From: an uncultured Planctomycetia bacterium
GTDB taxonomy: Bacteria; Omnitrophota; Gorgyraeia; 2-02-FULL-51-18
Length of the DNA: 64,000 bases
Assembly: GCA_964402785.1 (NCBI GenBank)
Contig: CAYODQ010000002.1
Coordinates: forward strand, 5,763 to 69,762
Reading direction: 5' to 3'
Part shown: piece after piece, positions 33,639 through 63,403 of the stretch
Numbering within the stretch: the first letter of the stretch is position 1
Layout: each line of letters starts with the position of its first letter
Notes under the pieces: generated by a model
Told to the model about the DNA's origin: nothing
Seen by the model: only the letters and a program-made list of their open reading frames with translations
Databases searched by the model: none
Position numbers and translations under genes: made by a program

Positions 33639-34463
33639 TTATTTTTTGGATTGAGATTTAATAACGCCATTAATAGGGTCGAAGGGCGTTTTGAGCATGC
33701 TCCACTCGCGGATACGCTTTTCGTCGGCGGATAAATAGATCCAAACTCTTCCCCGGCTATACAAAACACCCTTCAAACTTGTCCTGGGCTCAACGAGAAT
33801 GGTGTCCACACTCCCCCGACCTTTCAACTCTTTCGATTCTCTCTTTAGCACCTGTATCTCCAAGTCATGGTCTTTTTCTTCACTGGAAACAACGGTGTGC
33901 ACCGCTTTGCCTACTTGAAGATCTTGCCTGCGCACCCAGAAAAAAGCCGATATGACATCGTGCACAAATCCGCCGATCTCAAACTCTTTTTTTTCGCCGT
34001 TCTTAAGCGATTCGTAATAGCCCTTTTTATTAGATGGATCAAAAACCGTCTTTTCGTCCGCTCGGTACCGCCCCTCACTTAGTTTTTTTTGGAATTCCAG
34101 CGGATACAGATCGTCAACCGCAATAAAGCTATGCAGCTCATCTTGGACCGGGTATATCGTCGACAACACTTCGTTGGTCCTTGCGATCGCGACCACATGG
34201 TAAGCTTCTCGCCCAAGATGTTGGATCTTTTCCTTCACCCACAACTCTCCGTAACCCACGGGGACGCCCATCCAAGAAACTTCGTACAACAAATGCTCGC
34301 CCAACTCCATACGAGCATTCGGCTTTGACAGGGGGGGTAATTTCTTCGGTGTTTTTGCTGCAAAATTATTCTGCGCGATCGCTGGCATTGAACCGCACAG
34401 GATCGTCATCAATAAAACCAAAATCAAATATTTAACGTTGGTAAGTTGCAGATTTTTTTTCAT
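33639..34463 (-). CDS. secreted DUF3108-family protein (unknown function) at the start of the LPS-core cluster
   Basis: Signal peptide MKKNLQLTNVKYLILVLLMTILCGSMPAIA. YEVSWMGVPVGYGELW is a DUF3108-like motif. No homolog of known function recognised. Confidence 0.5.
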   Translation of the reverse strand: MKKNLQLTNVKYLILVLLMTILCGSMPAIAQNNFAAKTPKKLPPLSKPNARMELGEHLLYEVSWMGVPVGYGELWVKEKIQHLGREAYHVVAIARTNEVLSTIYPVQDELHSFIAVDDLYPLEFQKKLSEGRYRADEKTVFDPSNKKGYYESLKNGEKKEFEIGGFVHDVISAFFWVRRQDLQVGKAVHTVVSSEEKDHDLEIQVLKRESKELKGRGSVDTILVEPRTSLKGVLYSRGRVWIYLSADEKRIREWSMLKTPFDPINGVIKSQSKK

Positions 34464-36435
34464 GCTGTCTAGTCAGGATTGTCGCCAAGCTCTGGTACAC
34501 CTCTTCCACCCGGATCGCTTTTAGGCATTCAAAATCGATCGTGCATGCATGAGCCAAACAGACCACACATCCAATATCTTTATGCAAAACGCGGTGCGAC
34601 GCACCCAGCGGTTGCCAGCGGCGAGCGCCAAGCCCGGCTTGATTGCGTCCAAAAATACTGACAACCGGCGTACCAACAGCTGCGGCCACATGCACCGGGC
34701 CCGAATCATTTGAAACTAGAGCATCGCATACAGATAAGAACGCTGTCAGTTCATTTAAATTTTGACGGCCCGTCCAGTCCTGTACCCTCTCATCAAAACC
34801 CTTGGAAAGATAGGCTCCCAGCGAAACCTCATCCTCGCCACCAATAATCGCAACGCGGTGCGAATGGAACGCCAGGATACTTTCGATCAAGCGGCGGTAA
34901 TTTTCTTTGGGCCATCGCTTTGAAGGGCAGCTGGCGCCGGCGTGAATCGCGATCACCCCTTCTCGCTTAGCCAAATCCACTCGGGTCTCCGGAAAAAGCA
35001 GCTTATCCGGCATTTGAGTTGGGCGCGGCACACCAAACGCCTCGACCAAGTGCAAAGCATACTCAGATTCATGCTCCAAGCCCAGATGTCTTTTGTCAGG
35101 CATCGCGTGAGTGAGCAAAAAAGATAGGTTATTTTGATATCCGATCCGATATGGAATAGCTGATAAAAATGGGATCAAATAGGAACGTATCCCCGGATGC
35201 ATCACAAATGCTGCGTCAAACGATCGTCTTCTTATTTCTCGAATAAACCGGCTATAACCCCATGGAAACGTATGCGCTCCGCCCTTTTTGTAATCATAAA
35301 CCAGGACTTCATCGATCCAAGGATGCTCCCGCAAAAGATCCTGCGTGTAAGGCCGCGTCATGACCGTGATATGCGCATCGGGATGCTGTTGACGAAGTGC
35401 ATAGATAGATGGCAGCGTCAGCACCAGATCTCCAACACGATCCAATCGCATCACCAAAAACCTCAACCCCTGGCCTCTCAATCGATCCTCCAGGATCTGA
35501 GACGCTTTGTGATAAACAGTTTCTACGGATAAGTTGCTGAGGCACTCATGGCCATAGCGACATTGAGCTTTTTCGCATGGGGAACAAAAGATCTTGAGAG
35601 ATAAAGAAGCGCTGCCTTTTGTCCTGGGGCCGTACTTTGCCGGGTCCGTGGGCCCAAATAATGCCAGCACCGGAACTTTGAGCGCATCCGCGATATGAAG
35701 TGGCGCACTATCATTGGTGATGACGAGCTTTGCACGACGGACCAGACTTACTAATTCCAAGAAAGTCGTCTCGCCGCAAACATTTAAAGCCGCTTGCTTC
35801 ATGGATGAGCGAACACGTTCGGCGTCTTTTGCATCAGCCTTATCCCCCACCAATACGATCTGAAATCCTTTTTCATGGGCAAGCCGATCCAGAAGCTGAG
35901 CGTAATGAACTGCTGGCCATTTTTTAATATCGCTCTTGGAGCCTACGGCGGCAATGATCGTGGGCTTGTCTCTATCCAGCATTGGACGAGTAGAATCATT
36001 CGGTGATCTCCGCTCCAACCATCTTTGCTCCACCGGAAAAAGAGAAACAAGTCCTTTCAAAGAAGCCAGGTGTTTTTCACCGCGATGAGCGCCTTTGGAT
36101 CGAGTAATATAAGAATTACGATAACGTGCTCCTGAAAGCAAGCCGATCAAAGAACGCCGAAGATCGATCACAAGATCATAGCGCTCGTTGCGGATCGACT
36201 GAATAAACGCCCATTTCTGCTGAAAAGGTGCTCGTTTATTGAACACCCGAAACTGATCGATGCGCGGATCCCCTTCAAAAACGATCTTCCCGGATTCTCC
36301 CGCGATCACATCCAATTTCGCTTCAGGAAATGACAATTTCAATTGCTCAAACACCGGAAGCGTCAACACCACATCTCCTAAATTTGAAAGTGTGACGACC
36401 AAGATCTTTTGGATCGAGCTTTTGTCGGTGATCAT
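34432..36435 (-). CDS. tandem family-9 glycosyltransferase (two heptosyltransferase domains fused)
   Basis: Two complete GT9 units, each with an N-terminal LSNLGDVVLTLP / RVGDLVLTLP motif and a C-terminal NDSAPLHIA / NDSGPVHVAAA motif. 667 aa. Confidence 0.75.
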   Translation of the reverse strand: MITDKSSIQKILVVTLSNLGDVVLTLPVFEQLKLSFPEAKLDVIAGESGKIVFEGDPRIDQFRVFNKRAPFQQKWAFIQSIRNERYDLVIDLRRSLIGLLSGARYRNSYITRSKGAHRGEKHLASLKGLVSLFPVEQRWLERRSPNDSTRPMLDRDKPTIIAAVGSKSDIKKWPAVHYAQLLDRLAHEKGFQIVLVGDKADAKDAERVRSSMKQAALNVCGETTFLELVSLVRRAKLVITNDSAPLHIADALKVPVLALFGPTDPAKYGPRTKGSASLSLKIFCSPCEKAQCRYGHECLSNLSVETVYHKASQILEDRLRGQGLRFLVMRLDRVGDLVLTLPSIYALRQQHPDAHITVMTRPYTQDLLREHPWIDEVLVYDYKKGGAHTFPWGYSRFIREIRRRSFDAAFVMHPGIRSYLIPFLSAIPYRIGYQNNLSFLLTHAMPDKRHLGLEHESEYALHLVEAFGVPRPTQMPDKLLFPETRVDLAKREGVIAIHAGASCPSKRWPKENYRRLIESILAFHSHRVAIIGGEDEVSLGAYLSKGFDERVQDWTGRQNLNELTAFLSVCDALVSNDSGPVHVAAAVGTPVVSIFGRNQAGLGARRWQPLGASHRVLHKDIGCVVCLAHACTIDFECLKAIRVEEVYQSLATILTRQHEKKSATYQR

Positions 36436-37475: not shown

Positions 37476-38275
37476 GAATCCATGGAAGGGCTGACACTCT
37501 GCTGGCCACCCTTATAAGACACACGCTTTTTTCCTAGGTGATAAATACCGGAGACTTTGGCCCAAAAACTAAACAGCCCGTTCGAATTATTGACCTTGAT
37601 GCGATGCAGACCATAAAAATCATGAGGCACTTTTCCGTAATTGGTCGTCACAGCACCTTCATATCCACTTGACTGAACCAAAGCCCTCACTTCAGGAGTG
37701 GTGCCTCCTGCGGGAAAACTGAAAAGCGTGACAGGATGACCCAAAATACTTTCAAGTTTCACCTTTGATGCGGTCAACTCGTTCTTTATTTGCTCTTCGG
37801 AGCATTTAGGCAAAAAAGCGTGGGATAATGTATGACTGCCAATGGTGACGCCGGATTCATCCATGATCTGAAGCTGCTTTGATGTCAGCCACCCCGCCTT
37901 GCCGATATTGTCCGTGATCATAAAGATAGTGGCTGGTAAACCTAGCTTTTTTAGGATAGGAAATGCATTGTTATAATTATCCACCGTCCCATCGTCAAAC
38001 GTAATACACACGGTCTTAGGCTTGATCTTTCTGCCTGCCTTTAATTCCTCCACCACTTTAGACAAGGGCTCGACATGATAACGGTGTGTTTTTAAGAACT
38101 GCATCTGTCGCTCGAAAGATTCGGGTGTGACCGTTGGTGACTTGATCTTGGGGTTGGCGTAATCGACAATGTGATACATGAGAATAGGGGTCTCAAAAAA
38201 ATAAGCGCGGGCAGCTTGGAAAAGGATCCAAGCGCAAATTAAAACAAGAACGAGGCCTTTGTACCGCCGGGTCAA
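37472..38275 (-). CDS. polysaccharide deacetylase (NodB homology domain), membrane-anchored
   Basis: N-terminal TM helix. ILMYHIV and CITFDDGTVDNY NodB motifs. Confidence 0.7.
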   Translation of the reverse strand: MTRRYKGLVLVLICAWILFQAARAYFFETPILMYHIVDYANPKIKSPTVTPESFERQMQFLKTHRYHVEPLSKVVEELKAGRKIKPKTVCITFDDGTVDNYNNAFPILKKLGLPATIFMITDNIGKAGWLTSKQLQIMDESGVTIGSHTLSHAFLPKCSEEQIKNELTASKVKLESILGHPVTLFSFPAGGTTPEVRALVQSSGYEGAVTTNYGKVPHDFYGLHRIKVNNSNGLFSFWAKVSGIYHLGKKRVSYKGGQQSVSPSMDS

Positions 38276-40395
38276 ACCAGGCTCTCCGATAACGATACGC
38301 CGGATGGACGCTTGTTATTGATGAGATGAAGGACGGCATCCAACACTTCCTGCACACTGATCTTCTTCATACACGGATGGCCGATCGGACAGCTTCTGAG
38401 ATAACAAGGGCTGCACTGAAGCTCTTTCCAAAACACCTGATGATGTGAGGGCGGCATCAAGTGTCTTTTAGGATCAGTGGGCCCGAAAATAGCCACAAGC
38501 GGTATATCCAAGCTGGATGCGATATGCATTGGAGCCGAATCAGAGCTGATAAACACCTGACAACGCCTGATCAGCGCCGTGAGCTCTGTGATCGTCGTTT
38601 TTCCGACAGCATTCACCGGCTTGTTGCGTGTTTGCGATAAAAGCTCGTCCGCCAGCGCCTGCTCTTCGTGAGAACCCGTGATCACCACGCGAATATTTCT
38701 CCTCGCCAACTCATCGCAAAGCTTGGCGTAATTTTCCACAGGCCAAAGCTTGGTCGGCCATCGCGGAGACGATCCCGGATTGATCCCGACCAGGATCTGG
38801 CTGGGAGAAACCCACTGGGACTCCAAAAATTTTCCGATCTTCTCATCCTCACTCTTTTCCGTCCATATCTCAAGCTGCTTTGAGGATGGCTCGACTCCGA
38901 TAAGCTTCAGGACCTGAAATTGATGATCGATAGGAGAAATTGTTGAAAAATCGCCCTCTGCGCGCCGGTTAAGAAAAAAAGACCATTTGCGATTTTTGTG
39001 CCCCGCGCGCACCCGGGCACCGCAGAAAAATGAAAAGAAATGACTCAGTCGATTGTTTTGAAGATCGATAGCAATATCAAAATCCTCGCCAGCCAACAAC
39101 CGGGCCATCCGAAGCGCCGATCGCCATTTGTGCTTCATACTCTCTTCATAGACCATCACATCATCCACATACGGACAATTACGAATGATCTTTCTCGATT
39201 TTCTTCCAACAAGGACCGTGATCCAGGCTTTGGGATATTTTTCACGCAACGCCCTAAGAGAAGGAATACTGAGTATCACATCCCCAAGCGCACTCAACTT
39301 GATGACCAATATTTTTTTTCGGGAAAGCGCTTCTTCGTATACCTTGAGCTTCTTCTCAAACATCATGGGAAGATCATACTCAGCCTCGACTTTGGCGCGC
39401 AAAGATTGGGCTAGGTTTTTGGCCAGAGATTCGTCTTTGAGTATCCTCAACACGGCGTCCGCCAATTCGCGCGGATCCTCGGGACCCACCAATAATCCGT
39501 CTTTTTCGTGCTCAATGATATCCACCAAGCCACCCATGCGCGTCGCCACCACAGGGACACCGCAAGCGCCTGCCTCGATCACGACACGCCCAAAAGCCTC
39601 TTCGCCCACCGACGGCGCCACCAAAACCGACATCTTACTCAAAAGCTCTGGAATATTATATCGGGTCCCCATGAACTGAACTGCCTGCGAAAGCCCAAGG
39701 TTACGCGTGAGCATCAAAAGCTCTTCTTTGTATTGTGGTTTGGGCGCATCTCCAATGATCTGGATCTTGATATGCGGATAAACTCGCACGACCCGTGCCA
39801 TGGCTTTCAAAAAAAGTGGGTGTCCCTTGATCGGTGTCAGCCTCCCCACCAAACCGATCACCACTTCCTTTGTTGCTGCCAGTTTTTCAGCGTCGCGCAA
39901 TTTAAACTCTTCCAAATTGACACCACGCGGGATCATGCGGATCTTTTCGTGAGGTACACCAAAGTCATCTCGCATGCGCTTCCCAATAATATGGCTAGCG
40001 ACAATCACGTATTTGCCCCAACCCATCGGACGGCTTAAAAGGTGTTTACTATAAAAACCGTGGCTCGTTGTCACGAACGGAACCTGAGTGTAGCGGCTCA
40101 CAAAATAAGCGATCAGGGCGGGAACGCGGCTGCGGGCATGGATCACATCGATACCCTCCATGCGAACGATTTTGATCAATGCTTTTACGGAGGCGATGAT
40201 AGAAAAAACTGATTTTTTATGCACCGGAAGCGCATAATGCGTGACACCCGCTGACACGAGCTCGCCAACCAGAGGGCCCCCAGCTGAAACCACCACAGCC
40301 TTATAGCCTTTACGTTTTAAATACTTCGCCAGATCGACCGACCCGCGTTCAACCCCGCCTGATTTGAGCTCTGGCAATATCTGAAGCACGACCAT
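38272..40395 (-). CDS. GT4 glycosyltransferase fused to a C-terminal GT9 heptosyltransferase domain
   Basis: N-terminal ~370 aa carries the GT4 EX7E motif (EEAFGRVVIEAGACGVPVVATRMGG). C-terminal ~330 aa is a GT9 domain (ILVIKLSALGDVILSIP ... SSDSAPMHIASS). Confidence 0.75.
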   Translation of the reverse strand: MVVLQILPELKSGGVERGSVDLAKYLKRKGYKAVVVSAGGPLVGELVSAGVTHYALPVHKKSVFSIIASVKALIKIVRMEGIDVIHARSRVPALIAYFVSRYTQVPFVTTSHGFYSKHLLSRPMGWGKYVIVASHIIGKRMRDDFGVPHEKIRMIPRGVNLEEFKLRDAEKLAATKEVVIGLVGRLTPIKGHPLFLKAMARVVRVYPHIKIQIIGDAPKPQYKEELLMLTRNLGLSQAVQFMGTRYNIPELLSKMSVLVAPSVGEEAFGRVVIEAGACGVPVVATRMGGLVDIIEHEKDGLLVGPEDPRELADAVLRILKDESLAKNLAQSLRAKVEAEYDLPMMFEKKLKVYEEALSRKKILVIKLSALGDVILSIPSLRALREKYPKAWITVLVGRKSRKIIRNCPYVDDVMVYEESMKHKWRSALRMARLLAGEDFDIAIDLQNNRLSHFFSFFCGARVRAGHKNRKWSFFLNRRAEGDFSTISPIDHQFQVLKLIGVEPSSKQLEIWTEKSEDEKIGKFLESQWVSPSQILVGINPGSSPRWPTKLWPVENYAKLCDELARRNIRVVITGSHEEQALADELLSQTRNKPVNAVGKTTITELTALIRRCQVFISSDSAPMHIASSLDIPLVAIFGPTDPKRHLMPPSHHQVFWKELQCSPCYLRSCPIGHPCMKKISVQEVLDAVLHLINNKRPSGVSLSESLV

Positions 40396-40397
40396 AT

Positions 40398-42365
40398 CTA
40401 CATGATCCTTTGCGCCACGTTATGCAATACATCTTCTTGACGCCGCCGATACTCCCAGTCTGGGGCGCCAGACCGCTGAGACAACGACATCATCTGATCT
40501 AAAAATTGCTCGGAACGACCCCGCACGATCTTCCCTTCGCGCTCCAATCGATCCAAATATTCTTCGTATTTGGGTTTCGTGGATGTCCCTGCCTGCCAAG
40601 GTTCTATCACCAACACAAGTTTTCCGGCCATCACCGCTTCCGAGATCATCGACATGGACTCACCTGTTACGATCACCCAATCCGACAATCCCAATATAGC
40701 ACTCACGCCGCCCTGACGATTGGCTTCATTGGCGATCAAAAGATATGGACACACCCGCTTATCCAGAAAAAAATGCTTCATCACCTGCTCGGCCCAGGCT
40801 GGCGTTCGGCGCGAACTGGTCGCGATCACCTCAACACCCTGCCTTAGACTGAACTGATGCAGCATTTGCATCCACTTTTCAAACAGCGCCAGCTGAAACT
40901 GGATTTTAGTGGTATCTCCGCCAACAAGCAATCCAATTTTCTTCGCGTGCCCGCCCAAAGACAGCTCCGCGCGTAGTTTTTGCGATTCCCTTGAGAGATC
41001 TTCTTGTCGCATGGCAGAAAGCGCTCCATCCGTCACGAATACACGGTCGCTGGACATGGCTTTATCGTGTTTCGGAAGAATGATAGCATCGAACAGCTCG
41101 TGCGACGTGCTGGGCTTCATGATCAAAACGGATTTTGCTTTATTTTCTTTTTTGATCCAAATATTCACATCTTGAAGCGACGAGCCGCAAGAAATAACAA
41201 TATCCGCATACGCACGCCTCATCTGGCGATAGCAATCAGGTTTCAATGCAGCCTTGAGCCACAGAGTCCTAAATGGGATGTGTCCCCGACAAAGAATGCT
41301 CAGCGCGCGCAAGCCCCCTCTAAAAAACTCGTTCCTGAATTGGATCTGAAGCTCTTCACAAAAAAGCCTGTCGGCTGTTCCTTGCGGCTCACGCATGCGT
41401 CGCATCGCATCCACAACCGCCATGGATTGATGCACATGCCCGGCTCGCCCATCACTCAACACCAGGATCTTTTTGTCGGGCGACGATTTCCAGCGCCGAT
41501 GACCCCAAAGCCACTGATGAGGAGATCTTCGGATCTTCTCTTCAAGGGTATCTGCAAATTGCTGCAAAATAAAACTCTCGGCGTCATCCGGCGCTGCATC
41601 TGCCGGAGGCATCTTAAGGGCATCGCCCACTTCGATGAAGTGCTTCTCGCCTTTTTGCCTAAAAATAAAAACGGGGAAAATGGGTGCGCCGGTTCTCATG
41701 GAAAAAGCGGCAACGCCTGGAGGGGTTGATGAGAGTCTGTCAAAAAGATGAACGAATCGCCCTTTCTTTCCGCCATCCTGGTCGCTCAAAATGGCCACGA
41801 TCTTGCCTTCGTGCAAGGATTTTAAGATCTGGCGAACCATGATCCCTTTGTAAATGACCTGGCTGCCTTTGGATTCACGCAACTTGTTCAAATAGGCATC
41901 CGATCGTGGGTGCTTTTGCAATCTCGCCAAAGCCACCAGCGGCATCCCCATCAAGCTGCCGGCAATATTCAGAAGCTCCCAACTGCCAAAATGGCCGGTC
42001 AAAAAAATGACGCCTTTTTTTTGCCTCAAAGCTTCTTCGTATTTCTCGCGGCCTTCGATCGTAAAATGTTCTTGGATATATTTAAGATCCATATCCGGGA
42101 CCCTGAGCAGATCCACGGCATTCATGGCTAAGTTCTGAAAAGATCGCTCGGCTATTCTTTTGAGTTCTTTGGGTGAATAGGCTTCACCCAGAGCCATCTT
42201 GAGATTGCGATAAGCAATGGCGCCGCGCTTGGAAAAAATAAACACAAGCGTCCCCACCCCGCGCGCAAAAGCGAGCGAAAAACTAAAAGGAAGCCAGCGG
42301 ACTAAAGCTCGCCCAGCTTGGACGACTTTAAGAATTAAGGCATCTTCTAATAAAGTCTTCTTCAT
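40398..42365 (-). CDS. lipid A late acyltransferase (LpxL/HtrB-like LPLAT) fused to an ELM1/DUF1022-like domain
   Basis: N-terminal ~300 aa has the LGHFGSWELL acyltransferase motif and a PIFPVFI region. C-terminal ~350 aa starts ILVLSDGRAGHVHQSM, matching the conserved start of bacterial ELM1/DUF1022 proteins. Confidence 0.65.
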   Translation of the reverse strand: MKKTLLEDALILKVVQAGRALVRWLPFSFSLAFARGVGTLVFIFSKRGAIAYRNLKMALGEAYSPKELKRIAERSFQNLAMNAVDLLRVPDMDLKYIQEHFTIEGREKYEEALRQKKGVIFLTGHFGSWELLNIAGSLMGMPLVALARLQKHPRSDAYLNKLRESKGSQVIYKGIMVRQILKSLHEGKIVAILSDQDGGKKGRFVHLFDRLSSTPPGVAAFSMRTGAPIFPVFIFRQKGEKHFIEVGDALKMPPADAAPDDAESFILQQFADTLEEKIRRSPHQWLWGHRRWKSSPDKKILVLSDGRAGHVHQSMAVVDAMRRMREPQGTADRLFCEELQIQFRNEFFRGGLRALSILCRGHIPFRTLWLKAALKPDCYRQMRRAYADIVISCGSSLQDVNIWIKKENKAKSVLIMKPSTSHELFDAIILPKHDKAMSSDRVFVTDGALSAMRQEDLSRESQKLRAELSLGGHAKKIGLLVGGDTTKIQFQLALFEKWMQMLHQFSLRQGVEVIATSSRRTPAWAEQVMKHFFLDKRVCPYLLIANEANRQGGVSAILGLSDWVIVTGESMSMISEAVMAGKLVLVIEPWQAGTSTKPKYEEYLDRLEREGKIVRGRSEQFLDQMMSLSQRSGAPDWEYRRRQEDVLHNVAQRIM

Positions 42366-43308: not shown

Positions 43309-44621
43309 ACGTTTAACAGTCTCCTTCCAAGCGATTGTTCGAGAACCGATAGTACATAATCCAGGTTTTTTTGGGCAGCGCCTCGGTGGCGACCGATCAG
43401 ATCTTTTGCCGCCTCACCGATATCCATTCGTTTGCGTGCGTCACCTATCCATTCCACCAACTTTACTTCCAGCGCCTCTTTATCTTTCACACATACCGAC
43501 GCTTTTCCATTTTCAAACTCCTCGACCATAGACTTAAAATTTTGCATGTAAGGGCCGTACAAAACGGGCTTTCCAAAATAGGCCGGCTCGACCAAATTAT
43601 GCCCGCCGATGGGCACAAGGCTGCCGCCCATGAACACGGCATCGGATGCGGCGTAAAAATCGGATAAAACACCCATTTTATCGATCAAAAAAACAGCGGC
43701 CTCGCGATCATTTTCCGCCGAGGCTTCAAATCTCTTTGAATACCGCCGGACACCCAAACTCTTGTTAAGCGCTGTTTTCTCAATATCATCCGCCCGATCG
43801 ACATGCCGAGGCGCCAAAACAAGCCTGAGGTCATGCTGCTTTCGCAAGCGTGAATACACATCCAAAACGATCTCTTCTTCGCCCGGATGAGTACTAGCGC
43901 ATAGCCAGGTAAAAAGACCGTGTTCATCCGGCAGCTGCGCGCGATCCTTGTCGGAAATCTTCCATTCGTTGGGCGACCATTCAAATTTCAAATTCCCCGT
44001 CACCTGCACACGCGACTCATCAGCGCCCAACCGAACAAATCGATCTTTCATCGTATCGTCTTGGACGGCGATCCCGCTGAGCCTATTCAAGGAATGCTTT
44101 AGAAAGAATTTGGCCTTCAGATATTTTTTAAATGCGCGGTCTGAGATCCGGCCATTGACGATGAACGTTGGTATCCTTTTGGCGAATAAAACATCGATCA
44201 AGTTGGGCCAGATCTCGGTTTCAAACAAAAGCACCGTGGAGGGAGAGATTTTTTTGACAAATGCGGCAACCGCCCAACTCCAATCGATCGGAAAATAGCA
44301 AAGCGCATCGTCATCTGATTTGATCTTGGAAGCGACCTCATATCCTGTTACGGTCGTGGTCGTGAACAAAATCTTGGCTTCCGGCATGCGAAGCTTAAGC
44401 TGGGCGGCCCACCTCACAGCAAGCCCGATCTCGCCCACCGATACGGCATGCAGCCACACCACCTTGTGACCGGCGAGCTTATCCAAACAGTCTTTGGGGG
44501 GATTTCCAAAACGAGCAGAGGCACCTTTATTAGCCTTCCCCTTCAAAATAAAAATAGGTAAATAAAATAAAGAAAATATCGCGAAGCCGAAATTGTACAA
44601 AAACTTGGATAAAAAGATCAT
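43305..44621 (-). CDS. waaA: 3-deoxy-D-manno-octulosonic acid transferase (Kdo transferase)
   Basis: VWLHAVSVGEIGLAVRWAAQLK conserved N-terminal motif. 438 aa. Confidence 0.9.
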   Translation of the reverse strand: MIFLSKFLYNFGFAIFSLFYLPIFILKGKANKGASARFGNPPKDCLDKLAGHKVVWLHAVSVGEIGLAVRWAAQLKLRMPEAKILFTTTTVTGYEVASKIKSDDDALCYFPIDWSWAVAAFVKKISPSTVLLFETEIWPNLIDVLFAKRIPTFIVNGRISDRAFKKYLKAKFFLKHSLNRLSGIAVQDDTMKDRFVRLGADESRVQVTGNLKFEWSPNEWKISDKDRAQLPDEHGLFTWLCASTHPGEEEIVLDVYSRLRKQHDLRLVLAPRHVDRADDIEKTALNKSLGVRRYSKRFEASAENDREAAVFLIDKMGVLSDFYAASDAVFMGGSLVPIGGHNLVEPAYFGKPVLYGPYMQNFKSMVEEFENGKASVCVKDKEALEVKLVEWIGDARKRMDIGEAAKDLIGRHRGAAQKNLDYVLSVLEQSLGRRLLNV

Positions 44622-45499
44622 GCTCTGGGATGCGCCTTTCCGTATGCGTCTTTCAACCTCTCGATGGACACATGTGTATAGATCTGTGTAGTGGAAAGAT
44701 TCTCATGCCCCAAAAGCTCTTGGACAGATTTAAGGTCCGCGCCACGGTTCAAAAGATGCGTCGCAAAGGAATGTCGAAGTGTGTGCGGTGATATTTTTTC
44801 ACGGCGCGATGTTTGATCGATATATTTAAGTAAGGTGCGACGTACACTCCTATCCGTAAGCCGAGAGCCTCGCTGATTGGGCGAATGATTTAGAAATACG
44901 GCGCGCGATGACTTTTTGATCTGCTGATCCCTCAACTCCAGATACTGCCGAATATTTTTCAGCGCCCGATCACCGATAGGGCACAAGCGTTCTTTTGATC
45001 CTTTTCCAAACACACGGCAAACGCCGCTGATGAAATCAACTTTATCCAGATCCAAACTCACCAACTCCGACACGCGCATCCCGGTGGAATAAAGTGTCTC
45101 CAGGATAGCTTTGTCACGGCGGCCGTCCAGATCATTCGAAGGCGCATCAAGAAGACGGCTCACATCGGATTCATCCAATATGATCGGGAGTTTTTTCTCC
45201 TGCTTGGGATTGCGCACGGAGGCAAGCGGATTTTTGGAAACCAGCCCTTCCCTCACCAGAAAACGATAAAAAGTGCGCAACGCAGCCATGCGACGACTCA
45301 CCGTCCTTTTGGACAAACCATCCGCATTCAGCTTTGCCAAATATGAACGCACCTTGTCTTTGTCGATGCCCTCCACCGAAGCGTCACCGATGAAACTGAA
45401 AAATTCTTTAAGATCATGCGAATAATTCAAGATCGTATGCGGCGAATAATTTTTCTCGCCTTTCAAATAGTTGAGAAATTTTTGAAGAGAGATGTTCAT
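44618..45499 (-). CDS. tyrosine site-specific recombinase XerC/XerD family
   Basis: 293 aa with an N-terminal SAM-like domain. C-terminal HTLRHSFATHLL...LGHENLSTTQIYTHV carries the catalytic Tyr. No flanking att/tRNA, so it is probably the housekeeping Xer. Confidence 0.85.
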   Translation of the reverse strand: MNISLQKFLNYLKGEKNYSPHTILNYSHDLKEFFSFIGDASVEGIDKDKVRSYLAKLNADGLSKRTVSRRMAALRTFYRFLVREGLVSKNPLASVRNPKQEKKLPIILDESDVSRLLDAPSNDLDGRRDKAILETLYSTGMRVSELVSLDLDKVDFISGVCRVFGKGSKERLCPIGDRALKNIRQYLELRDQQIKKSSRAVFLNHSPNQRGSRLTDRSVRRTLLKYIDQTSRREKISPHTLRHSFATHLLNRGADLKSVQELLGHENLSTTQIYTHVSIERLKDAYGKAHPRA

Positions 45500-45501
45500 A
45501 T

Positions 45502-47769
45502 CTAAATATCGGAGAGATGTTTATCGTCTTCCGCGGGCCCTTGATCGTCAGCTTTGGGCGCTGCATCGGATCCCGGCTCAGCCGAATTCGCTGAGGGAAG
45601 TTTGTTGACGATATAGTTGCAATTGGGATAAGCCGTACACCCAAAAAAGGGCCGTCCGCGGCCTGACTTGGCGCGGCGCGCAACAAGCTTGCCCGTTTTG
45701 CATTGCGGGCAAACCACGTCGGTCGATATTGATTTTGCATTCTTGCACTCAGGCCACGCTGAGCAGCTCATGAAGCGGCCGCGGCGGCCCCATTTGATCA
45801 CCATGGGCTTGCCACATTTGTCACAGATCTCATCAGTGGGCTCAGCCACTTTCTTGACCGTTTGGATCTGGTCTTTGGCGGCCTCCATCTGCCCTTTAAA
45901 GACATCGTAAAAAGTGCGTACCACCTGCACCCAATTACAATGCCCTTCTTCGATCTCGTCCAACTGCTCTTCAAGTCCTGCGGTGAACTGAAAATCCATC
46001 ACCTTTTCAAAATGTTTCACCAAAATATCCACCACCAACATCCCAAGCTCCGTCGGCACCAAACTCCCGCCTTCTCTGCGGATATAATCGCGCCCCGTAA
46101 GCGTGGCGATGATCGGAGCATACGTCGAAGGGCGGCCGATCCCCTGTTCTTCCAGAGCCTTGACCAACGATGCATCCGTGAATCGCGCTGGCGGTTTTGT
46201 AAAATGCTGATGGTTTTGCAGATCCAAAAGGATCAAATTCTCCCCCACCTCAAGAGCAGGAAGCGGATTATCCTCATCTTCGCTGCGATCTGTGACGGCC
46301 AAAAAGCCAGGGAACTCCACACGGCTACCAGTGGAGCGAAAAATAAACTCGCCCGCTGCAATATCTGCCGTATCTTGCGCGATCAGCGCCGGCACCATCT
46401 GACTAGCCACCGTTTGCTCCCAGATCAGTGAATACAGCTTTTGTTGATCAGGCGTTAAGAAGGATTCGATCGACTTGGGATCTCTAGAAATAGCGCTGGG
46501 CCTAATAGCCTCATGTGCTTCCTGAGCTGCTTTTTTTGACTTATAAACATTGGGAGTACCCGGCAAATAATCCTTACCGAATTGTTTTGCAATGTAGTCA
46601 CGCGTCTCCTTGAGGGCTCCCTCCGAAATTCGCACTGAATCCGTACGCATGTAGGTGATTAAACCCACGCTGCCCTCGTCGGCAATCTCCACGCCTTCAT
46701 AAAGGGTTTGAGCCACCTTCATCGTTTTGGAGGCAGGGAAACGATATCGGTTATAAGCTGCCTGTTGTAATTTGCTGGTGGTGAACGGCGCCGACGGATT
46801 GCGCTTTTTCTTGAGATGCTTGACCTCCTTGACGATGAAGGGAGCATTTTTGGATGCCGCCAAAGCCTTATCGGCCACCCCTTTATCGGCCATCTCTATC
46901 TTTTTATCACCGATCTTTTCGAGATTGGCTTTGAAAGTACGCGTATCACCGCTCTTTTTTTTGAGATCCGCTTCGATGGACCAGTATTCTTCGGGTACAA
47001 ATGCCCGGATCTTTCTTTCCTGGTCGACGATGAGACGAAGCGCTACCGATTGCACGCGGCCGGCTGACAATCCACGGCCCACTTTCTGCCACAAAAGCGG
47101 GCTTAAACTATAACCCACGAGACGATCCAGCACGCGCCTTGCTTGCTGGGCGCCAATGAGATCCATGTTCAGATCATGCGGTTTTTTAAACGCCTCTAAA
47201 ATAGCGTCCTTCGTGATCTCATTGAACACCACTCGCCATACGGTTTTTCCTTTGCCGAGGGCTTCTTTCAAATGCCAGCTGATCGCTTCACCCTCACGGT
47301 CAGGGTCACAGGCCAGGTATATTTCTTTTTTAGATTTGGCTTTTTTCTTAAGCTCGCTGAGCGTTTTCTTCCTGTCTTTGACCACGATATACTTGGGCTC
47401 AAAATTATTCTCGATGTCGATGCCCATTTTACTTTTGGGAAGATCGATCACATGACCCATCGAAGCCGTCACTTCAAATCCGGAGCCTAGATATTTCTGG
47501 ATGGTCTTGCATTTGGCAGGAGACTCCACGATCACAAGCGCATGCGCTGGCGCTCCACCACCCACAAAATGCACAATCTCAATCTGGTCTCCCTCGCGCA
47601 CCGCCACATCCGAAAGACAGTCACGCGATACGATCTCAAGATTGTGTTCGACCACGACCTTTTCTTTCACGATCTTGAGCGCCTCTAAAAGCTGCAACAA
47701 ATTAATTCCTGAAGAAAATTCCCTCTTCTCTCCATTCAAAATAATATGAACCATAGATGCTGTGCTCAC
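45502..47769 (-). CDS. topA: DNA topoisomerase I with an in-frame N-terminal ThiS-like ubiquitin-fold extension
   Basis: TOPRIM start LVIVESPAKCKTIQKYLG and a catalytic Tyr region (SEGSVGLITYMRTDS). C-terminal Zn-ribbon repeats (CDKCGKPM..., CPQCKTGK...). The ORF starts at GTG 47769, overlapping the dprA TGA (GTGA). Confidence 0.85.
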   Translation of the reverse strand: MSTASMVHIILNGEKREFSSGINLLQLLEALKIVKEKVVVEHNLEIVSRDCLSDVAVREGDQIEIVHFVGGGAPAHALVIVESPAKCKTIQKYLGSGFEVTASMGHVIDLPKSKMGIDIENNFEPKYIVVKDRKKTLSELKKKAKSKKEIYLACDPDREGEAISWHLKEALGKGKTVWRVVFNEITKDAILEAFKKPHDLNMDLIGAQQARRVLDRLVGYSLSPLLWQKVGRGLSAGRVQSVALRLIVDQERKIRAFVPEEYWSIEADLKKKSGDTRTFKANLEKIGDKKIEMADKGVADKALAASKNAPFIVKEVKHLKKKRNPSAPFTTSKLQQAAYNRYRFPASKTMKVAQTLYEGVEIADEGSVGLITYMRTDSVRISEGALKETRDYIAKQFGKDYLPGTPNVYKSKKAAQEAHEAIRPSAISRDPKSIESFLTPDQQKLYSLIWEQTVASQMVPALIAQDTADIAAGEFIFRSTGSRVEFPGFLAVTDRSEDEDNPLPALEVGENLILLDLQNHQHFTKPPARFTDASLVKALEEQGIGRPSTYAPIIATLTGRDYIRREGGSLVPTELGMLVVDILVKHFEKVMDFQFTAGLEEQLDEIEEGHCNWVQVVRTFYDVFKGQMEAAKDQIQTVKKVAEPTDEICDKCGKPMVIKWGRRGRFMSCSAWPECKNAKSISTDVVCPQCKTGKLVARRAKSGRGRPFFGCTAYPNCNYIVNKLPSANSAEPGSDAAPKADDQGPAEDDKHLSDI
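47557..47754 (-). CDS. thiS: ThiS-like sulfur-carrier (beta-grasp) domain, no stop codon before the topA TOPRIM domain
   Basis: MVHIILNGEKREFSSGINLLQLLEALKIVKEKVVVEHNLEIVSRDCLSDVAVREGDQIEIVHFVGGG. The C-terminal IEIVHFVGGG matches the B. subtilis ThiS end exactly. Codons GGT GGT GGA are followed directly by GCG CCA GCG CAT GCG CTT GTG ATC GTG GAG. Confidence 0.6.
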
Positions 47770-48809
47770 GATTTCACCGAATAATACTTTCCGGGCAGCT
47801 CTTTAAGAGCGCCTTTGATCTGAAGCATGGTGAGAGACATCAAGACCTGTGAGGGCGCAAGCCTGGTCTTCTCGACGATCTCATCCACATGCAACGGCTC
47901 CGCATCGTCAAAGAGATCCAAAATGCCTTTTTCCTCCGGAGAGCTAGCCGATTTCTTGGCTTGCTTCAGATTGGCTTCTTTAAAAAGAACGCCGTATTCA
48001 TTCAAGATATCTTCGGCACAAGTAACGAACCGCGCACCTTGCTTGAGCAGCCAGTTGCTTCCTTTGGATTTGGAAGATTCATTGGCGGGCACCGCAAAAA
48101 CATCACGGCCCTGCTCCAGCGCCAATCCCGATGTGATCAAAGCGCCGCTTTTCTCACGTGCTTCCACAACGACCAAGCCGCGCGACAAACCGCTGATGAT
48201 GCGGTTGCGCATCGGAAAATAGGCTGGCATCGGGGTCATCCGAATCGGATACTCTGACACCACAGCTCCTTTTCTGGCGATCGCATCGATCATCTTCTTT
48301 CCGCCATGGTCGTAAACATTGCCAATGCCGCCACCCAGAACGGCCACGGTCACACCATCCGCTTTCAAAGCGCCATTGTGCGCCGCGGTGTCTATTCCTC
48401 TAGCCATACCACTTACGACCACAACTCCAGCGCCGGCCAGATCACAACCAAATGCCTCCGCTGTTTTGAGTCCATGGAGGGAAGCGTCGCGGGAACCCAC
48501 CACACCCACGGCAAGATCATTATCACTTGGAAGCTCACCCTTCACATAAAGCAGGATCGGTGGATCGAATATATTTTTAAGTGCTGCCGGATAGGCCTTA
48601 TCAAAAAAATGGATGATATGAACACCTCGAGCATACGTCATTTCGATCTCTTCATCGGCCGCTTTAAGATCGCGGGCTTTGGCCTGAAAAAACCTCTCCA
48701 AAGAACCGTGCTCCATCAATCCATTTTTAAACGTTACGGCGCCCATGCGCGGCACCAGTGATAAAGCCACCATTTGCCGCAACGTCTCGGTTATCTTAAA
48801 TGCGCCCAT
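47766..48809 (-). CDS. dprA: DNA processing protein A (Smf)
   Basis: Rossmann-like DprA core GVVVVSGMARGIDTAAHNGAL...AVLGGG. Conserved dprA-topA adjacency. Confidence 0.85.
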   Translation of the reverse strand: MGAFKITETLRQMVALSLVPRMGAVTFKNGLMEHGSLERFFQAKARDLKAADEEIEMTYARGVHIIHFFDKAYPAALKNIFDPPILLYVKGELPSDNDLAVGVVGSRDASLHGLKTAEAFGCDLAGAGVVVVSGMARGIDTAAHNGALKADGVTVAVLGGGIGNVYDHGGKKMIDAIARKGAVVSEYPIRMTPMPAYFPMRNRIISGLSRGLVVVEAREKSGALITSGLALEQGRDVFAVPANESSKSKGSNWLLKQGARFVTCAEDILNEYGVLFKEANLKQAKKSASSPEEKGILDLFDDAEPLHVDEIVEKTRLAPSQVLMSLTMLQIKGALKELPGKYYSVKS

Positions 48810-59038: not shown

Positions 59039-59514
59039 AGAGATCTCCTGATAGCCTCCACCAATTCAAGCCTTGTTTTGCGACCCGGGCTTATTTTTAG
59101 TTTCCGGGTATTTGGCGATACATGCCCGAACGAAAACCAGATCGTCTGCAAAGGCAGGCATCCTCTGCCCCGCTCTGGCCACTCCACGAATGTCACGGCC
59201 TTCGACGAAAAACACTCTTGCGCAAAATCTCGGTCAGCCCCTTCTACTTTTTTTAGGCGATACCAGTCCAAATGGAAAACCTTTTCTCGACCTTGATACT
59301 CATGGATCACTACAAATGTGGGGCTAGCTACCTCCGTCGACACCGGGACTTTGAGCCCCTGGCACACACCTTTCACCCAGGTCGTTTTTCCGGCTCCCAG
59401 CGCACCTTGAAGCGCAACAACATCGCCTGCCTTCAAAAAATTTCCTACTTTTTTCCCAAAAGCCATTGTTTCTTTGGCTGACGAAAGCGTGATCTCTAAT
59501 TTATTTTTTTTCAT
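59035..59514 (-). CDS. tsaE: tRNA t6A37 biosynthesis ATPase TsaE (YjeE)
   Basis: LQGALGAGKTTWVKGV P-loop. Probable start at MKKNKLEI (59514); the longer ORF overlaps thiL. Confidence 0.8.
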   Translation of the reverse strand: MKKNKLEITLSSAKETMAFGKKVGNFLKAGDVVALQGALGAGKTTWVKGVCQGLKVPVSTEVASPTFVVIHEYQGREKVFHLDWYRLKKVEGADRDFAQECFSSKAVTFVEWPERGRGCLPLQTIWFSFGHVSPNTRKLKISPGRKTRLELVEAIRRSL

Positions 59515-60433
59515 TTTTAAAATGATCAAATCCTTGCAACTTGAGCGGCATACGCTTACCCTGAGCATCCAACAGGCGGATCGCACCCGCAACGTCGGTC
59601 ACTCTACCCACAGGATACACCCTCGAAGCAAATTTGGGAGAGGCCAAAATTTTGCGCGCATCTTTATCTGACACGGTGAAAAGCAGCTCAAAATCTTCTC
59701 CATCCGTCAACGCGCTCTCCAGCGACAAGGATCTCGAAGACCGGGGTATTTGAGGCGCAAATAGATCTGCCCCCACTCGGCTTTCCTCACAAATGTGTTT
59801 TAGGTCTGAGATAAGCCCGTCGGAGATATCCATCATCGAATGCAGCCGCACGAGCTTTGAAAGTTTTTGAGCGAGCTCGACCTGTGGCATAAAACGAAGA
59901 TGCTTCTTAGAAGCATAAGACCCGCCCAAAGCGCCTGTCACGAAGATATAATCACCACATTTGGCGCCGCTCCGAAGCACAGCTTTGCCTTTTGCGACTT
60001 CGCCCATCAAAGTCACCGCGATCGTGATCTTATCGCTTTGATTGGTATCGCCGCCCACGATCTCGACCGCAAAGCTGCGCGCTAAATCAGACAGTCCTCG
60101 CATCAGAGCATCCGCATACGTGATCTTAAGATTTGACGGCAACCCAACAGCCACCACCGCGTATTTGGGGATACCTGCCATAGCCGCGATATCGCTTAAA
60201 TTGACCGCCATTGCTTTTCTTCCGATCTCATACGGACTCGCATCACCTCTCTTGAAATGATGCCCTTCGATGAGCATGTCCGTCGTCAACAAAATATCTT
60301 TGTTGGTTCCCGGCAAAACAGCCGTATCATCTCCGATGCCTTTGATCCCGGCACGCCCGGGACGAAGTTTTTTTTGAAGTGATGCGATCCATCCGAATTC
60401 GCCCGCTTGCGAAAGCGTCTTTTTCATTTTCAT
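59501..60433 (-). CDS. thiL: thiamine-monophosphate kinase
   Basis: AIR-synthase-related fold (GIGDDTAVLP, LMGEVAKGKAVLRSGAKCGDYIFVTGALG). 310 aa. Confidence 0.85.
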   Translation of the reverse strand: MKMKKTLSQAGEFGWIASLQKKLRPGRAGIKGIGDDTAVLPGTNKDILLTTDMLIEGHHFKRGDASPYEIGRKAMAVNLSDIAAMAGIPKYAVVAVGLPSNLKITYADALMRGLSDLARSFAVEIVGGDTNQSDKITIAVTLMGEVAKGKAVLRSGAKCGDYIFVTGALGGSYASKKHLRFMPQVELAQKLSKLVRLHSMMDISDGLISDLKHICEESRVGADLFAPQIPRSSRSLSLESALTDGEDFELLFTVSDKDARKILASPKFASRVYPVGRVTDVAGAIRLLDAQGKRMPLKLQGFDHFKNEKK

Positions 60434-61476: not shown

Positions 61477-62249
61477 GTAAGACTGAGCCCAAAAAAACGG
61501 GACGCATTTTGAGTGGTTTGAAAAGCCAGGTCTTCAACTGACACATTTCGCTTCTGTGCCAAAAAAGAAGCTACTTCAGCGACGAACGCCGGTTCATTGC
61601 GCTTTCCTCTAAAGATCTGTGGCGCAAGATAAGGAGAATCGGTCTCCAACAGCATCCTGTCTGCCGGCACGAAACTCGCAGCATCCAAAACCGGCACGGC
61701 ATTCTTATAGGTCACGGTCGCGGTGAAAGACACCAAAAAGCCGATATCCAGAAGCTTGGTCAACGCGTCGCGATCGTAGGAATAACAATGCATGACCCCG
61801 CGAAGCTTGCCTTCGTTTTCTTTGATCAACATCTCATAGGTGTCCTCAAACGCATTTCGCGAGTGGATGACCACAGGAAGATCGTATTTTTGCGCTACAT
61901 GAAGCATATGGCGAAATATCTTTTTCTGGATCGCGGCGTCACCCTCGCTCTTATAATAATCCAGCCCTATCTCACCGATCGCCACAGGCTTTGTTTTTTG
62001 AATAAAATCTTCCAGGGTCAACAAACCAGTCTCATCGATCTCATGCGCATGATGCGGATGAAGACCGGCTGTGTGCCGCATCGATGGCTCTTGTGAGGCC
62101 AATCGCCAGGCAGCCTCATTCGTTGCGTTGTCCGTGCCAACATTGATCATACATTCAACGCCTGCTTTTTTGGCGCGCGACAACATGTCAGCCCGATCCG
62201 CGTCAAAATCGGGAAAATGCAAGTGACAATGTGTATCCACCAGCCTCAT
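61473..62249 (-). CDS. tatD: TatD-family metal-dependent hydrolase
   Basis: MRLVDTHCHLHFPDFD N-terminus. 258 aa. Confidence 0.85.
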   Translation of the reverse strand: MRLVDTHCHLHFPDFDADRADMLSRAKKAGVECMINVGTDNATNEAAWRLASQEPSMRHTAGLHPHHAHEIDETGLLTLEDFIQKTKPVAIGEIGLDYYKSEGDAAIQKKIFRHMLHVAQKYDLPVVIHSRNAFEDTYEMLIKENEGKLRGVMHCYSYDRDALTKLLDIGFLVSFTATVTYKNAVPVLDAASFVPADRMLLETDSPYLAPQIFRGKRNEPAFVAEVASFLAQKRNVSVEDLAFQTTQNASRFFGLSLT

Positions 62250-63403
62250 GAGGATCCTGTGCTCGACCTTCTAAGGCGGGCAACAATCTTCGGAATAGCT
62301 TCCGACACACGATCGATCTCGGCATCGGTCGTATAACGTCCCAAAGAAAAGCGGATAGCGGATCGCGCCCTTTTCTCTCCCAAGCCCATTGCCAAAAGAA
62401 CATGAGATGGCTCGACAGATCCAGCCGTACAAGCAGATCCCGTAGAAACATAAATTTTATCCAGATCCAAATTGACCAAAAGCGTCTCTCCGTCAATGCC
62501 GTCAAATGACAGATTGAGGGTGTTGTATATGCGACTCTCTGCATGTCCGTTCAGGTGAGTATCGGATATCTTTTTGGTCAAAGCCGTTTGCAACCTGTCC
62601 CTAAGTATTTTCACGCGCTTTGTTTCGTCCGAACGATTTATCTCGCAAAGCTGCACAGCCTTTCCCATCCCAACAATACCCGCAACATTTTCGGTGCCAG
62701 GTCGGATATTTTTCTCCTGATGTCCGCCGTGAAACAACGATTTAATTTTCACGCCCTTTCGGATATAGAGAGCGCCAACTCCTTTGGGAGCGCATATTTT
62801 GTGAGCCGACAATGACAGGAGATCCGCGCCCCATTCTGACGGTTTGACCTCCATTTTGCCAAACGACTGGACTGCATCCACATGAAAGATCGCGCCAGAT
62901 CTTTGGCAAAGCGAAGCCAGCTCTTTGATAGGCTGGATGGTCCCAACCTCATTGTTCACGTGCATGACACTGACAAGCGCTGTCTTGTCCGAAATTTTTT
63001 GGCGCACAAAATCAACATCAACAAAACCATCACGGCTGACGGGTATGAATTCCACCGAATACCCAGATCGAGCCAGCACCTGAGCAGGGCTAAGCACGGC
63101 CTGATGCTCGAAGGCTGACACCAATAAATGTTTGCGGCCTTTTTCTTCCTGTGCCAACAGCGCGCCTTTTATCGATAAATTATCAGACTCTGTCCCACCG
63201 GAGGTAAAAAATACATCTCCCGCCTCCACCGACAAACTTTCAGCAACAAGCTCCCTCGCCTCTTCGATCGCATGACGAGCTGTCTGTCCTTTTTGATGAA
63301 AGCTAGAGGCGTTGGCAAAATGCTGAGTCAAATAAGGACGCATTGCCTCGAATACCTCAGGATCCACAGGAGTTGTGGCATTGTAATCAAGATAGGCTTC
63401 CAT
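62246..63403 (-). CDS. cysteine desulfurase (NifS/IscS class)
   Basis: 385 aa class V PLP enzyme. LDYNATTPVDPEV N-terminus, SAHKICAPKGVGALYI PLP-Lys region, SGSACTAGS catalytic Cys loop. Confidence 0.85.
   Translation of the reverse strand: MEAYLDYNATTPVDPEVFEAMRPYLTQHFANASSFHQKGQTARHAIEEARELVAESLSVEAGDVFFTSGGTESDNLSIKGALLAQEEKGRKHLLVSAFEHQAVLSPAQVLARSGYSVEFIPVSRDGFVDVDFVRQKISDKTALVSVMHVNNEVGTIQPIKELASLCQRSGAIFHVDAVQSFGKMEVKPSEWGADLLSLSAHKICAPKGVGALYIRKGVKIKSLFHGGHQEKNIRPGTENVAGIVGMGKAVQLCEINRSDETKRVKILRDRLQTALTKKISDTHLNGHAESRIYNTLNLSFDGIDGETLLVNLDLDKIYVSTGSACTAGSVEPSHVLLAMGLGEKRARSAIRFSLGRYTTDAEIDRVSEAIPKIVARLRRSSTGSS

Follow-up and report, generated by a model that had tools for sequence, protein, structure and literature searches.

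A ThiS sulfur-carrier domain fused in frame to DNA topoisomerase I across Omnitrophota, and its putative release after Gly-Gly

Sulfur carriers such as ThiS require a free C-terminal glycine for adenylation and thiocarboxylation, and their tail threads into the active sites of ThiF and ThiG, as seen in the 1TYG complex. In eukaryotes, ubiquitin is made as a fusion to the ribosomal proteins eL40 and eS31 or as a polyubiquitin precursor and is freed by Gly-Gly-specific peptidases. Work ascribed to Godert et al. in 2007 is said to show that QbsE, from thioquinolobactin synthesis in Pseudomonas, carries extra residues after its Gly-Gly that are removed by the JAMM peptidase QbsD. For carriers fused to a second protein, MoaX of M. 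tuberculosis gains activity only once an unidentified protease has split the Gly82-Ser83 bond (PMC4326299), the JAMM peptidase DRJAMM cleaves Deinococcus MoaD-MoaE (PMC8832034), and a JAB peptidase has been proposed to release fused ThiS/MoaD (Iyer, Burroughs and Aravind 2006; PMC1779556). Here we describe a ThiS domain fused in frame to the N-terminus of a complete DNA topoisomerase I (TopA), encoded in a 64-kb stretch of contig CAYODQ010000002.1 of an uncultured Omnitrophota bacterium (the whole stretch is called the window below).

MoaX and the MoaD-MoaE proteins (D. radiodurans DR2607; archaeal SAMP1-MoaE) resemble the present protein in that an N-terminal carrier places its Gly-Gly directly before a second protein, and their activity needs endoproteolysis after the second glycine, by a JAMM peptidase in Deinococcus and Haloferax (PMC4326299, PMC8832034). 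Their partner, however, is the carrier's own MoaE, whereas here it is an unrelated essential DNA enzyme, and cleavage is what we infer. ThiS is likewise joined to another protein in ThiS-ThiG, ThiS-ThiF and ThiS-sulfite reductase (PMC1779556), but all partners in that 2006 catalogue belong to sulfur or thiamine metabolism. A topoisomerase partner is absent from the 2006 (PMC1779556) and 2007 beta-grasp surveys, and full-text literature searches returned no paper describing a ThiS-TopA fusion. Carriers fused at Gly-Gly are already known with pathway partners (ThiG, ThiF, MoaE, sulfite reductase, AOR); the topoisomerase partner appears to be new. With the ubiquitin precursors the protein shares an N-terminal beta-grasp domain set by its Gly-Gly head-to-tail on an unrelated housekeeping protein within one polypeptide; ubiquitin, in contrast, is a protein modifier with known processing enzymes, whereas ThiS is a sulfur carrier and the enzyme hypothetical here, and the likeness lies in the logic of the arrangement and implies no common descent of the fusions. 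QbsE is closer to stand-alone Omnitrophota ThiS proteins that end in GGG plus one residue (see below), but its extension reportedly measures two residues and its peptidase is encoded in the same cluster, whereas here the attachment ranges from one residue to a 680-aa enzyme without a linked peptidase. In family, length and ...EIVHFVGGG motif the fused domain agrees with canonical ThiS (B. subtilis, 1TYG_B; E. coli, 1F0Z). The canonical protein, however, stops at Gly-Gly, and its gene usually accompanies thiF, thiG and thiH/O; the fused ThiS is never thi-linked in the examined loci.

The fused gene and its homologues

The gene and its parts are laid out as follows.

45502-47769, minus strand: ThiS-linker-TopA fusion, a single open reading frame (ORF) of 755 aa from GTG 47769
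47554-47754, minus strand: ThiS beta-grasp domain, residues 6-72 (profile match 9-72), by PF02597, TIGR01683, tblastn and AlphaFold2
47554-47562, minus strand: Gly70-Gly71-Gly72, the C-terminal Gly-Gly of ThiS, with the predicted cleavage site after G72
47539-47553, minus strand: linker APAHA, residues 73-77
45502-47538, minus strand: complete bacterial DNA topoisomerase I (TIGR01051, PF01751, PF01131, PF01396), with Toprim at residues 78-185, Topoisom_bac at 200-617, two C4 zinc ribbons at ~647-720 and a disordered tail
47766-47769, minus strand: GTGA overlap of the fusion start codon (GTG 47769-47767) with the dprA stop codon (TGA 47768-47766)

The encoded protein reads GDQIEIVHFVGGG-APAHA-LVIVESPAKCKTI, without a stop codon at the ThiS/TopA boundary. 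A first-pass annotation, made from the sequence without database searches, had noticed that the GGG runs on into TopA, and the junction read directly in the DNA agrees: CAT TTT GTG GGT GGT GGA GCG CCA GCG CAT GCG CTT GTG ATC GTG GAG TCT CCT, translated as HFVGGG-APAHA-LVIVESP with no in-frame stop. It had also taken the N-terminus for a ThiS domain in frame with TopA and proposed a ThiS/MoaD profile search as a check, which gave significant matches above the curated cutoffs: Pfam PF02597 matches residues 9-72 with E 1.4e-11 (3.2e-13 for the domain alone; 45.2-50.4 bits against a cutoff of 22.5), and the NCBIfam equivalog TIGR01683 'thiS' scores 61.8 bits (67.6 for the domain alone; cutoff 37.45), spanning profile positions 1-64 of 64 with exactly G72 as its last residue. 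E. coli ThiS matches by tblastn at 47751-47554, and B. subtilis ThiS (PDB 1TYG_B), the best solved relative, indeed terminates in VIEIVHFVGGG, as that annotation stated. The remainder of the protein scores 783.6 bits with TIGR01051 topA_bact (cutoff 456.4), and PDB structures of TopA align from residue 70-78 of the fusion onward. In an alignment of 120 sequences the catalytic Toprim Glu (E82) and DxD motif (D155-P-D157) are at least 90% conserved, and T372-Y373-M374-R375-T376-D377, with the active-site Tyr373 in GLITYMRTD, is invariant; by its sequence, the TopA portion is an intact, complete bacterial topoisomerase I. The arrangement resembles that of cleavable precursor fusions such as MoaX, with an N-terminal ubiquitin-like domain whose Gly-Gly runs directly into complete TopA.

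The start at GTG 47769, overlapping the dprA stop as first described, translationally couples the fusion gene to dprA, and the same 4-nt overlap is present in a relative (L119). The NCBI gene call (P0313, 750 aa) starts five codons downstream, at ATG 47754. The closest homologue (P0314, 87% identity), whose N-terminus reads MSGASLVHIV, lacks a Met there, and the sequence comparison favours the upstream GTG.

The same architecture recurs in diverged homologues. Among the 120 best matches to the full protein (90%-identity clusters, 52-87% identity), 97 contain PF02597 together with all TopA domains, so that the ortholog check suggested at the outset returned the same N-terminal domain in most of the family; the named fused homologues are annotated 'type I DNA topoisomerase [Candidatus Omnitrophica/Omnitrophota bacterium]'. 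Nine fragmentary fusions came up when the N-terminal 171 residues served as query. Of the 4122 matches with E<=1e-30 among 1.84 billion 50%-identity representatives, only some three or four TopA representatives also aligned over the ThiS part, so the architecture is confined to the Omnitrophota lineage. We conclude that the gene fusion is genuine and lineage-wide within the phylum Omnitrophota. A search for ThiS homology alone gave 23 candidates and was uninformative: three of them (P0269, P0271, P0285) adjoin nuo (complex I) genes, and P0269 and two further matches bear Acidobacteriota/Terriglobia names. Two homologues depart from the common pattern. In P0423, a fused protein, part of the TopA N-terminal motif is repeated inside the linker (GGG-APKPKS-LGIVKSPAKSKTIHRKS-LVIVESPA). 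P0398 branches inside the main fused clade but carries some 90 low-complexity residues in place of the ThiS domain; the domain could have been lost or replaced secondarily, or the gene could start elsewhere.

All 86 fused ThiS domains that we aligned match the TIGR01683 equivalog (best E 1.3e-24), and a profile built from them finds the solved ThiS structures 1TYG_B (E 9e-18), 2K5P and 1F0Z, from B. subtilis, Geobacter and E. coli. The family hallmarks E39, N41, D59, E62 and GGG are invariant in these 86 domains, and the NG, helix LL and IV.FV motifs are conserved to at least 90%. Gly-Gly is retained in every fused homologue inspected, including two outside the 86-domain alignment that read VCGG and VSGG. 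Across unique fused loci the three glycine codons use all four synonymous codons while the residue is always Gly, and the constraint therefore acts on the protein and not on an RNA signal. The linker from GGG to LVIVESP, by contrast, ranges in length from 4 to about 40 residues, and its sequence is hardly conserved apart from the first residue, which is Ala (64) or Ser (17) in 81 of the 86 sequences. Pairwise NG86 ratios of nonsynonymous to synonymous substitution (dN/dS) have a median of 0.26 for fused ThiS, with 0.09 and 0.12 in the two closest pairs, compared with 0.07 for the first 90 TopA codons and ~0.4 for a few free ThiS genes; these values are rough, dS being saturated for most pairs. 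As judged from the alignments, fused ThiS is clearly under purifying selection.

In a confident AlphaFold2 (AF2) model built on the 120-sequence alignment (mean predicted local distance difference test score, pLDDT, 89.3), residues 6-67 form a beta-grasp and a canonical TopA begins at residue 77. The modelled ThiS strands (6-11, 14-19, 38-42, 45-47, 62-67) and helix (24-30) have pLDDT values of ~88-95, and the fused domain is thus predicted to adopt the ubiquitin-like beta-grasp fold. The sole internal stretch of low confidence is 69-73 (VGGGA; pLDDT <50), which the model predicts as a flexible, exposed hinge exactly at the putative cleavage site.

Origin from neighbouring thiS and topA genes

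To find further junctions we used a degenerate DNA pattern (E-x-V-x-x-[VMI]-GGG, 5-7 codons, LVIVESP, 30 codons, M-G). Within the window it matched at the expected site alone; metagenomes yielded 29 loci, 22 of which are in-frame fusions. In the other seven the thiS stop lies directly after GGG or after GGG plus one residue, and topA starts with ATG, GTG or TTG 1-10 nt past that stop. At two more unfused Omnitrophota loci a 68-aa thiS overlaps topA by 4 nt or ends 2 nt upstream of it. The unfused thiS and topA genes, the latter often starting with TTG or GTG, are thus very tightly coupled in translation; in these relatives (junctions of L082, L084, L088 and L104; L115, 5990-6010) the GGAGG-like glycine codons of ThiS (GGAGGAGG and the like) double as topA's Shine-Dalgarno sequence.

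Fused or not, all loci share the gene order ilvBNC-leuA-aroE-pilD-aroC-aroK-(aroB)-dprA-thiS/topA-xerC-waaA-lpxK-lpxL, an array conserved in ~30 Omnitrophota loci with TopA identity down to ~50% and followed by glycosyltransferase (GT) genes after lpxL. As the unfused relatives keep the order dprA-thiS-topA-xerC, with the thiS stop touching or near the topA start, the fusion is best described as evolutionary stop-codon loss. thiS sits directly upstream of topA in a one-directional housekeeping array, and loss of the thiS stop, apparently repeated, created one ORF for ThiS, a short flexible linker and complete TopA. In L095, thiS and topA are already in frame, and a single stop-codon substitution would leave a 5-residue linker. 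Hence, the lost stop codon considered in the first-pass annotation holds as an evolutionary origin (thiS ends 0-10 nt before topA in the unfused relatives), although not as a sequencing artefact.

Several observations bear on how often this happened. Unfused clades are interspersed among fused ones in a neighbour-joining tree built from the TopA core, and Fitch parsimony gives a minimum of 6 state changes, a count that is only suggestive as the tree carries no support values. Distinct linker types (AGAKA, KGGPKN and long Lys/Ala/Pro-rich ones) agree with several independent fusion events, and stop-codon loss has apparently been repeated several times independently. Because the clades are interleaved on the TopA tree, the fused and unfused states seem functionally interchangeable.

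Separate synthesis of the two proteins from the fused genes found no footing in the junctions: no conserved stop occurs in the other frames after GGG that would indicate a programmed frameshift or alternative-frame termination; the fused glycine codons are mostly GGC and do not resemble a Shine-Dalgarno sequence for an internal start; and no conserved, properly spaced in-frame start for a separate TopA exists.

Two further features of these loci were noted. Unfused Omnitrophota TopA proteins have histone-H1-like, Lys/Ala/Pro-rich N-terminal tails of 20-60 residues terminating in GNGKA-LVIVESP, and the same type of sequence forms the long ThiS-TopA linker in some fused proteins (noted in P0413, P0414, P0416 and P0422 (L115, L116) and in P0371, P0386, P0430 and P0432). 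In a deeper-branching group, a conserved pair of small genes coding for an RDD-family membrane protein (~139 aa, PF06271) and a 124-aa coiled-coil protein without Pfam match lies between dprA and thiS (L090, 3285-4162; L096, 5124-5987; L087, 1072-1963; L095, 291-1151); it is absent from the clade of the window.

Cleavage after Gly-Gly and the alternatives

In the primary translation product the Gly-Gly (G71-G72 of 755) is internal and offers no free C-terminal carboxylate, which could be attained only after proteolysis; as the carrier requires a free C-terminal glycine, a fused, uncut ThiS would be unable to act. We consider it about evenly probable (roughly 0.5) that the fusion is a polyprotein cut after Gly-Gly into a functional ThiS and TopA. 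Endoproteolytic release after Gly72 is the best explanation because the tail is retained under selection, the hinge is predicted to be flexible, the next residue is small and lineages switch between the fused and the free state. The cleavable ubiquitin-like pro-domain of the first-pass annotation is accordingly the best-supported of the mechanisms it offered, with cleavage itself a matter of deduction. A Gly-Gly-directed peptidase, hypothetical here and of JAMM/MPN+ or another type, would cut after Gly72; the released ThiS-GG would be adenylated and thiocarboxylated by ThiF and could serve thiazole synthesis via Thi4 or ThiG, while the TopA product would have the near-native N-terminus A-P-A-H-A-LVIVESPAK. 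The uncut fusion should yield EGDQIEIVHFVGGGAPAHALVIVESPAK as its junction-spanning tryptic peptide, and the cut products should yield the ThiS C-terminal peptide EGDQIEIVHFVGGG (...VHFVGGG) and the TopA neo-N-terminal peptide APAHALVIVESPAK. Autoproteolysis through an N-O or N-S acyl shift was discarded, as GGG is followed by Ala in 64 of the 86 sequences, leaving no nucleophile.

Among stand-alone Omnitrophota ThiS proteins, four of eight distinct sequences end in GGG plus one residue (GGGV, GGGN, GGGC, GGGA), at L087 (~641-838), L095 (1280-1525), L115 (5798-6004) and L116 (5792-5998). Since canonical ThiS ends at Gly-Gly, these proteins would need C-terminal trimming, which hints at a processing peptidase in the phylum. 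Tentatively, and at somewhat less than even odds, Omnitrophota may combine the ThiS polyprotein with a constitutive Gly-Gly peptidase that frees ThiS from any C-terminal attachment, from one residue to the 680-residue TopA; if true, such an enzyme would explain the repeated fused/unfused flips of the thiS/topA junction.

A role for the released carrier in thiamine synthesis would fit what is known of the phylum. Omnitrophota have been scored as thiamine producers (Seymour et al. 2023; PMC10066038), a scoring that is uninformative on the partners of ThiS because its module consists of thiC and thiD only; this capacity and the thiL gene of the window are compatible with a working pathway. In one Candidatus Omnitrophica genome a Thi4-type thiazole synthase is clustered with thiS and thiF, with no ThiG, and this Thi4 complemented E. 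coli better with host ThiF and ThiS present (PMC13325395), which makes a ThiS-dependent thiazole route plausible in the phylum.

Some points weigh against cleavage, besides the roughness of the dN/dS values and of the state-change count noted above. Given the thi4-linked thiS just mentioned (PMC13325395), the topA-linked ThiS might be a second copy dispensable for thiamine synthesis, and conservation of a Gly-rich hinge need not reflect carrier chemistry. Furthermore, tblastn, Pfam and motif searches, which covered the 64 kb of the window and ~250 kb from 30 related loci but not whole genomes, detected no gene for ThiF/MoeB, ThiG, ThiH, Thi4 or a JAMM/MPN+ protein, so that the ThiS partners, like the protease, are hypothetical here. 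In these loci the topA-linked thiS is never linked to its presumed partners.

The same data may be read as co-option, in which ThiS is never cleaved and has become a permanent N-terminal beta-grasp accessory domain of TopA (e.g. for docking or regulation), with thiamine made through another thiS. This reading, a serious contender but in our view an unlikely one, draws on the phylum-wide adjacency and recurrent fusion of thiS and topA, a classic 'Rosetta stone' signal of a functional link, on the lack of any linked thiamine, E1 or peptidase gene, on the separate thiS beside thi4 and thiF (PMC13325395), on the tolerance of many TopA proteins for N-terminal extensions, and on the purifying selection on the domain. 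The array, however, mixes unrelated housekeeping genes, so that adjacency alone is weak evidence, and 'Rosetta stone' fusions can stem from mere translational coupling of neighbours. Moreover, all 86 domains still score as ThiS equivalogs and strictly keep the flexible ...VGGG tail, which contributes nothing to the structure of the fold and is required for carrier chemistry alone; the linker is hypervariable, with no ordered interface at the junction in the AF2 model, and the toggling of lineages between free and fused states is hard to square with an obligatory function in cis.

The fusion could also be a selectively neutral accident, with ThiS a dead or redundant passenger tolerated on TopA and its conservation reflecting selection against misfolding of an essential protein. 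One point mutation or small indel at the 0-10 nt junction suffices for fusion, which apparently arose repeatedly, and P0398 with its low-complexity N-terminus does without ThiS. Yet the dN/dS of 0.09-0.26 extends over a deep radiation (TopA identity down to 52%), Gly-Gly and the ThiS family motifs (NG, E.N, GD.xEIV) are conserved across the 86 sequences, and a useless 72-residue domain, easily lost through a new start codon, has almost never been lost (97 of 120 retain it); we regard the passenger as improbable. Finally, a sequencing, assembly or frameshift error that erased the thiS stop in this assembly, for which only the prior that single-genome fusions are often errors and an apparent frameshift inside topA in one related contig might speak, has a negligible chance, the in-frame junction without a stop after GGG recurring in ~100 distinct protein clusters and in 22 metagenome contigs from independent projects, with linkers that differ in sequence and length. 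In the related contig concerned (L001/L110; OBEQ011933681.1, 283-2542) the fused gene is split into overlapping calls of 241 and 512 aa, probably by an assembly error in that contig.

In much of a phylum, then, and apparently through several independent fusions, a bona fide ThiS is attached to a DNA enzyme that is essential and unrelated to it, with its Gly-Gly kept. If it is cleaved, these uncultured bacteria must have a peptidase acting on Gly-Gly in linear fusions, and the gene would be the closest prokaryotic analogue of the ubiquitin-fusion genes, with a bearing on the question of how sulfur-carrier systems gave rise to the processing of ubiquitin precursors. If ThiS stays uncut, TopA has acquired a ubiquitin-like module. 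Automated domain annotation already shows the architecture, and stop loss between coupled neighbours is a mundane origin; noteworthy are the implied Gly-Gly processing and the recurrent fusion to an essential unrelated enzyme. In practice, the annotation of these genes solely as 'type I DNA topoisomerase' means that ThiS can be missed in pathway reconstructions for Omnitrophota.

Genomic surroundings in the window

Three further genes of the window are of interest here.

47766-48809, minus strand: dprA, the upstream neighbour (PF02481, PF17782; synteny in 30 loci)
44618-45499, minus strand: xerC-type tyrosine recombinase, the downstream neighbour (PF00589, PF02899; synteny)
59501-60433, minus strand: thiL, thiamine-monophosphate kinase with AIRS domains (Pfam)

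No ThiF, ThiG or ThiH lies nearby, as first reported, and thiL is the only other thiamine gene of the window by tblastn and Pfam scans of its ORFs; its presence suggests that the organism makes thiamine monophosphate itself. E. coli ThiC, ThiE, ThiF, ThiG and ThiH as tblastn queries found nothing in the window or in 29 related loci, where the only matches were those of ThiS. A search of the ORFs of the window and related loci for the JAMM motif H-x-H-x7-S-x2-D returned a single chance match in TatD, no TPP (thiamine pyrophosphate) riboswitch or other Rfam family was detected in the window, and no ThiI or rhodanese was seen there. Pfam scans of essentially all 60 ORFs found housekeeping genes only, among them dxr, thiL, the TPP enzyme acetolactate synthase and an IscS/NifS-like class-V aminotransferase. 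Class-V aminotransferase genes occur twice, at 22299-23414 and 62246-63403; the latter, with a full-length IscS/NifS-like match (PF00266, E 4e-85), lies ~2 kb from thiL, and its product may supply ThiS with sulfur.

The minus strand carries 58 of the ~60 ORFs (1143-63944), many with overlapping stop and start codons. Other fused genes occur in the same array: a lipid A acyltransferase is joined to an ELM1-like domain at 40398-42365 (PF03279+PF06258), a GT4 to a GT9 heptosyltransferase at 38272-40395, and two GT9 domains to each other at 34432-36435. The acyltransferase-ELM1 and GT4-GT9 fusions are also kept in related loci.

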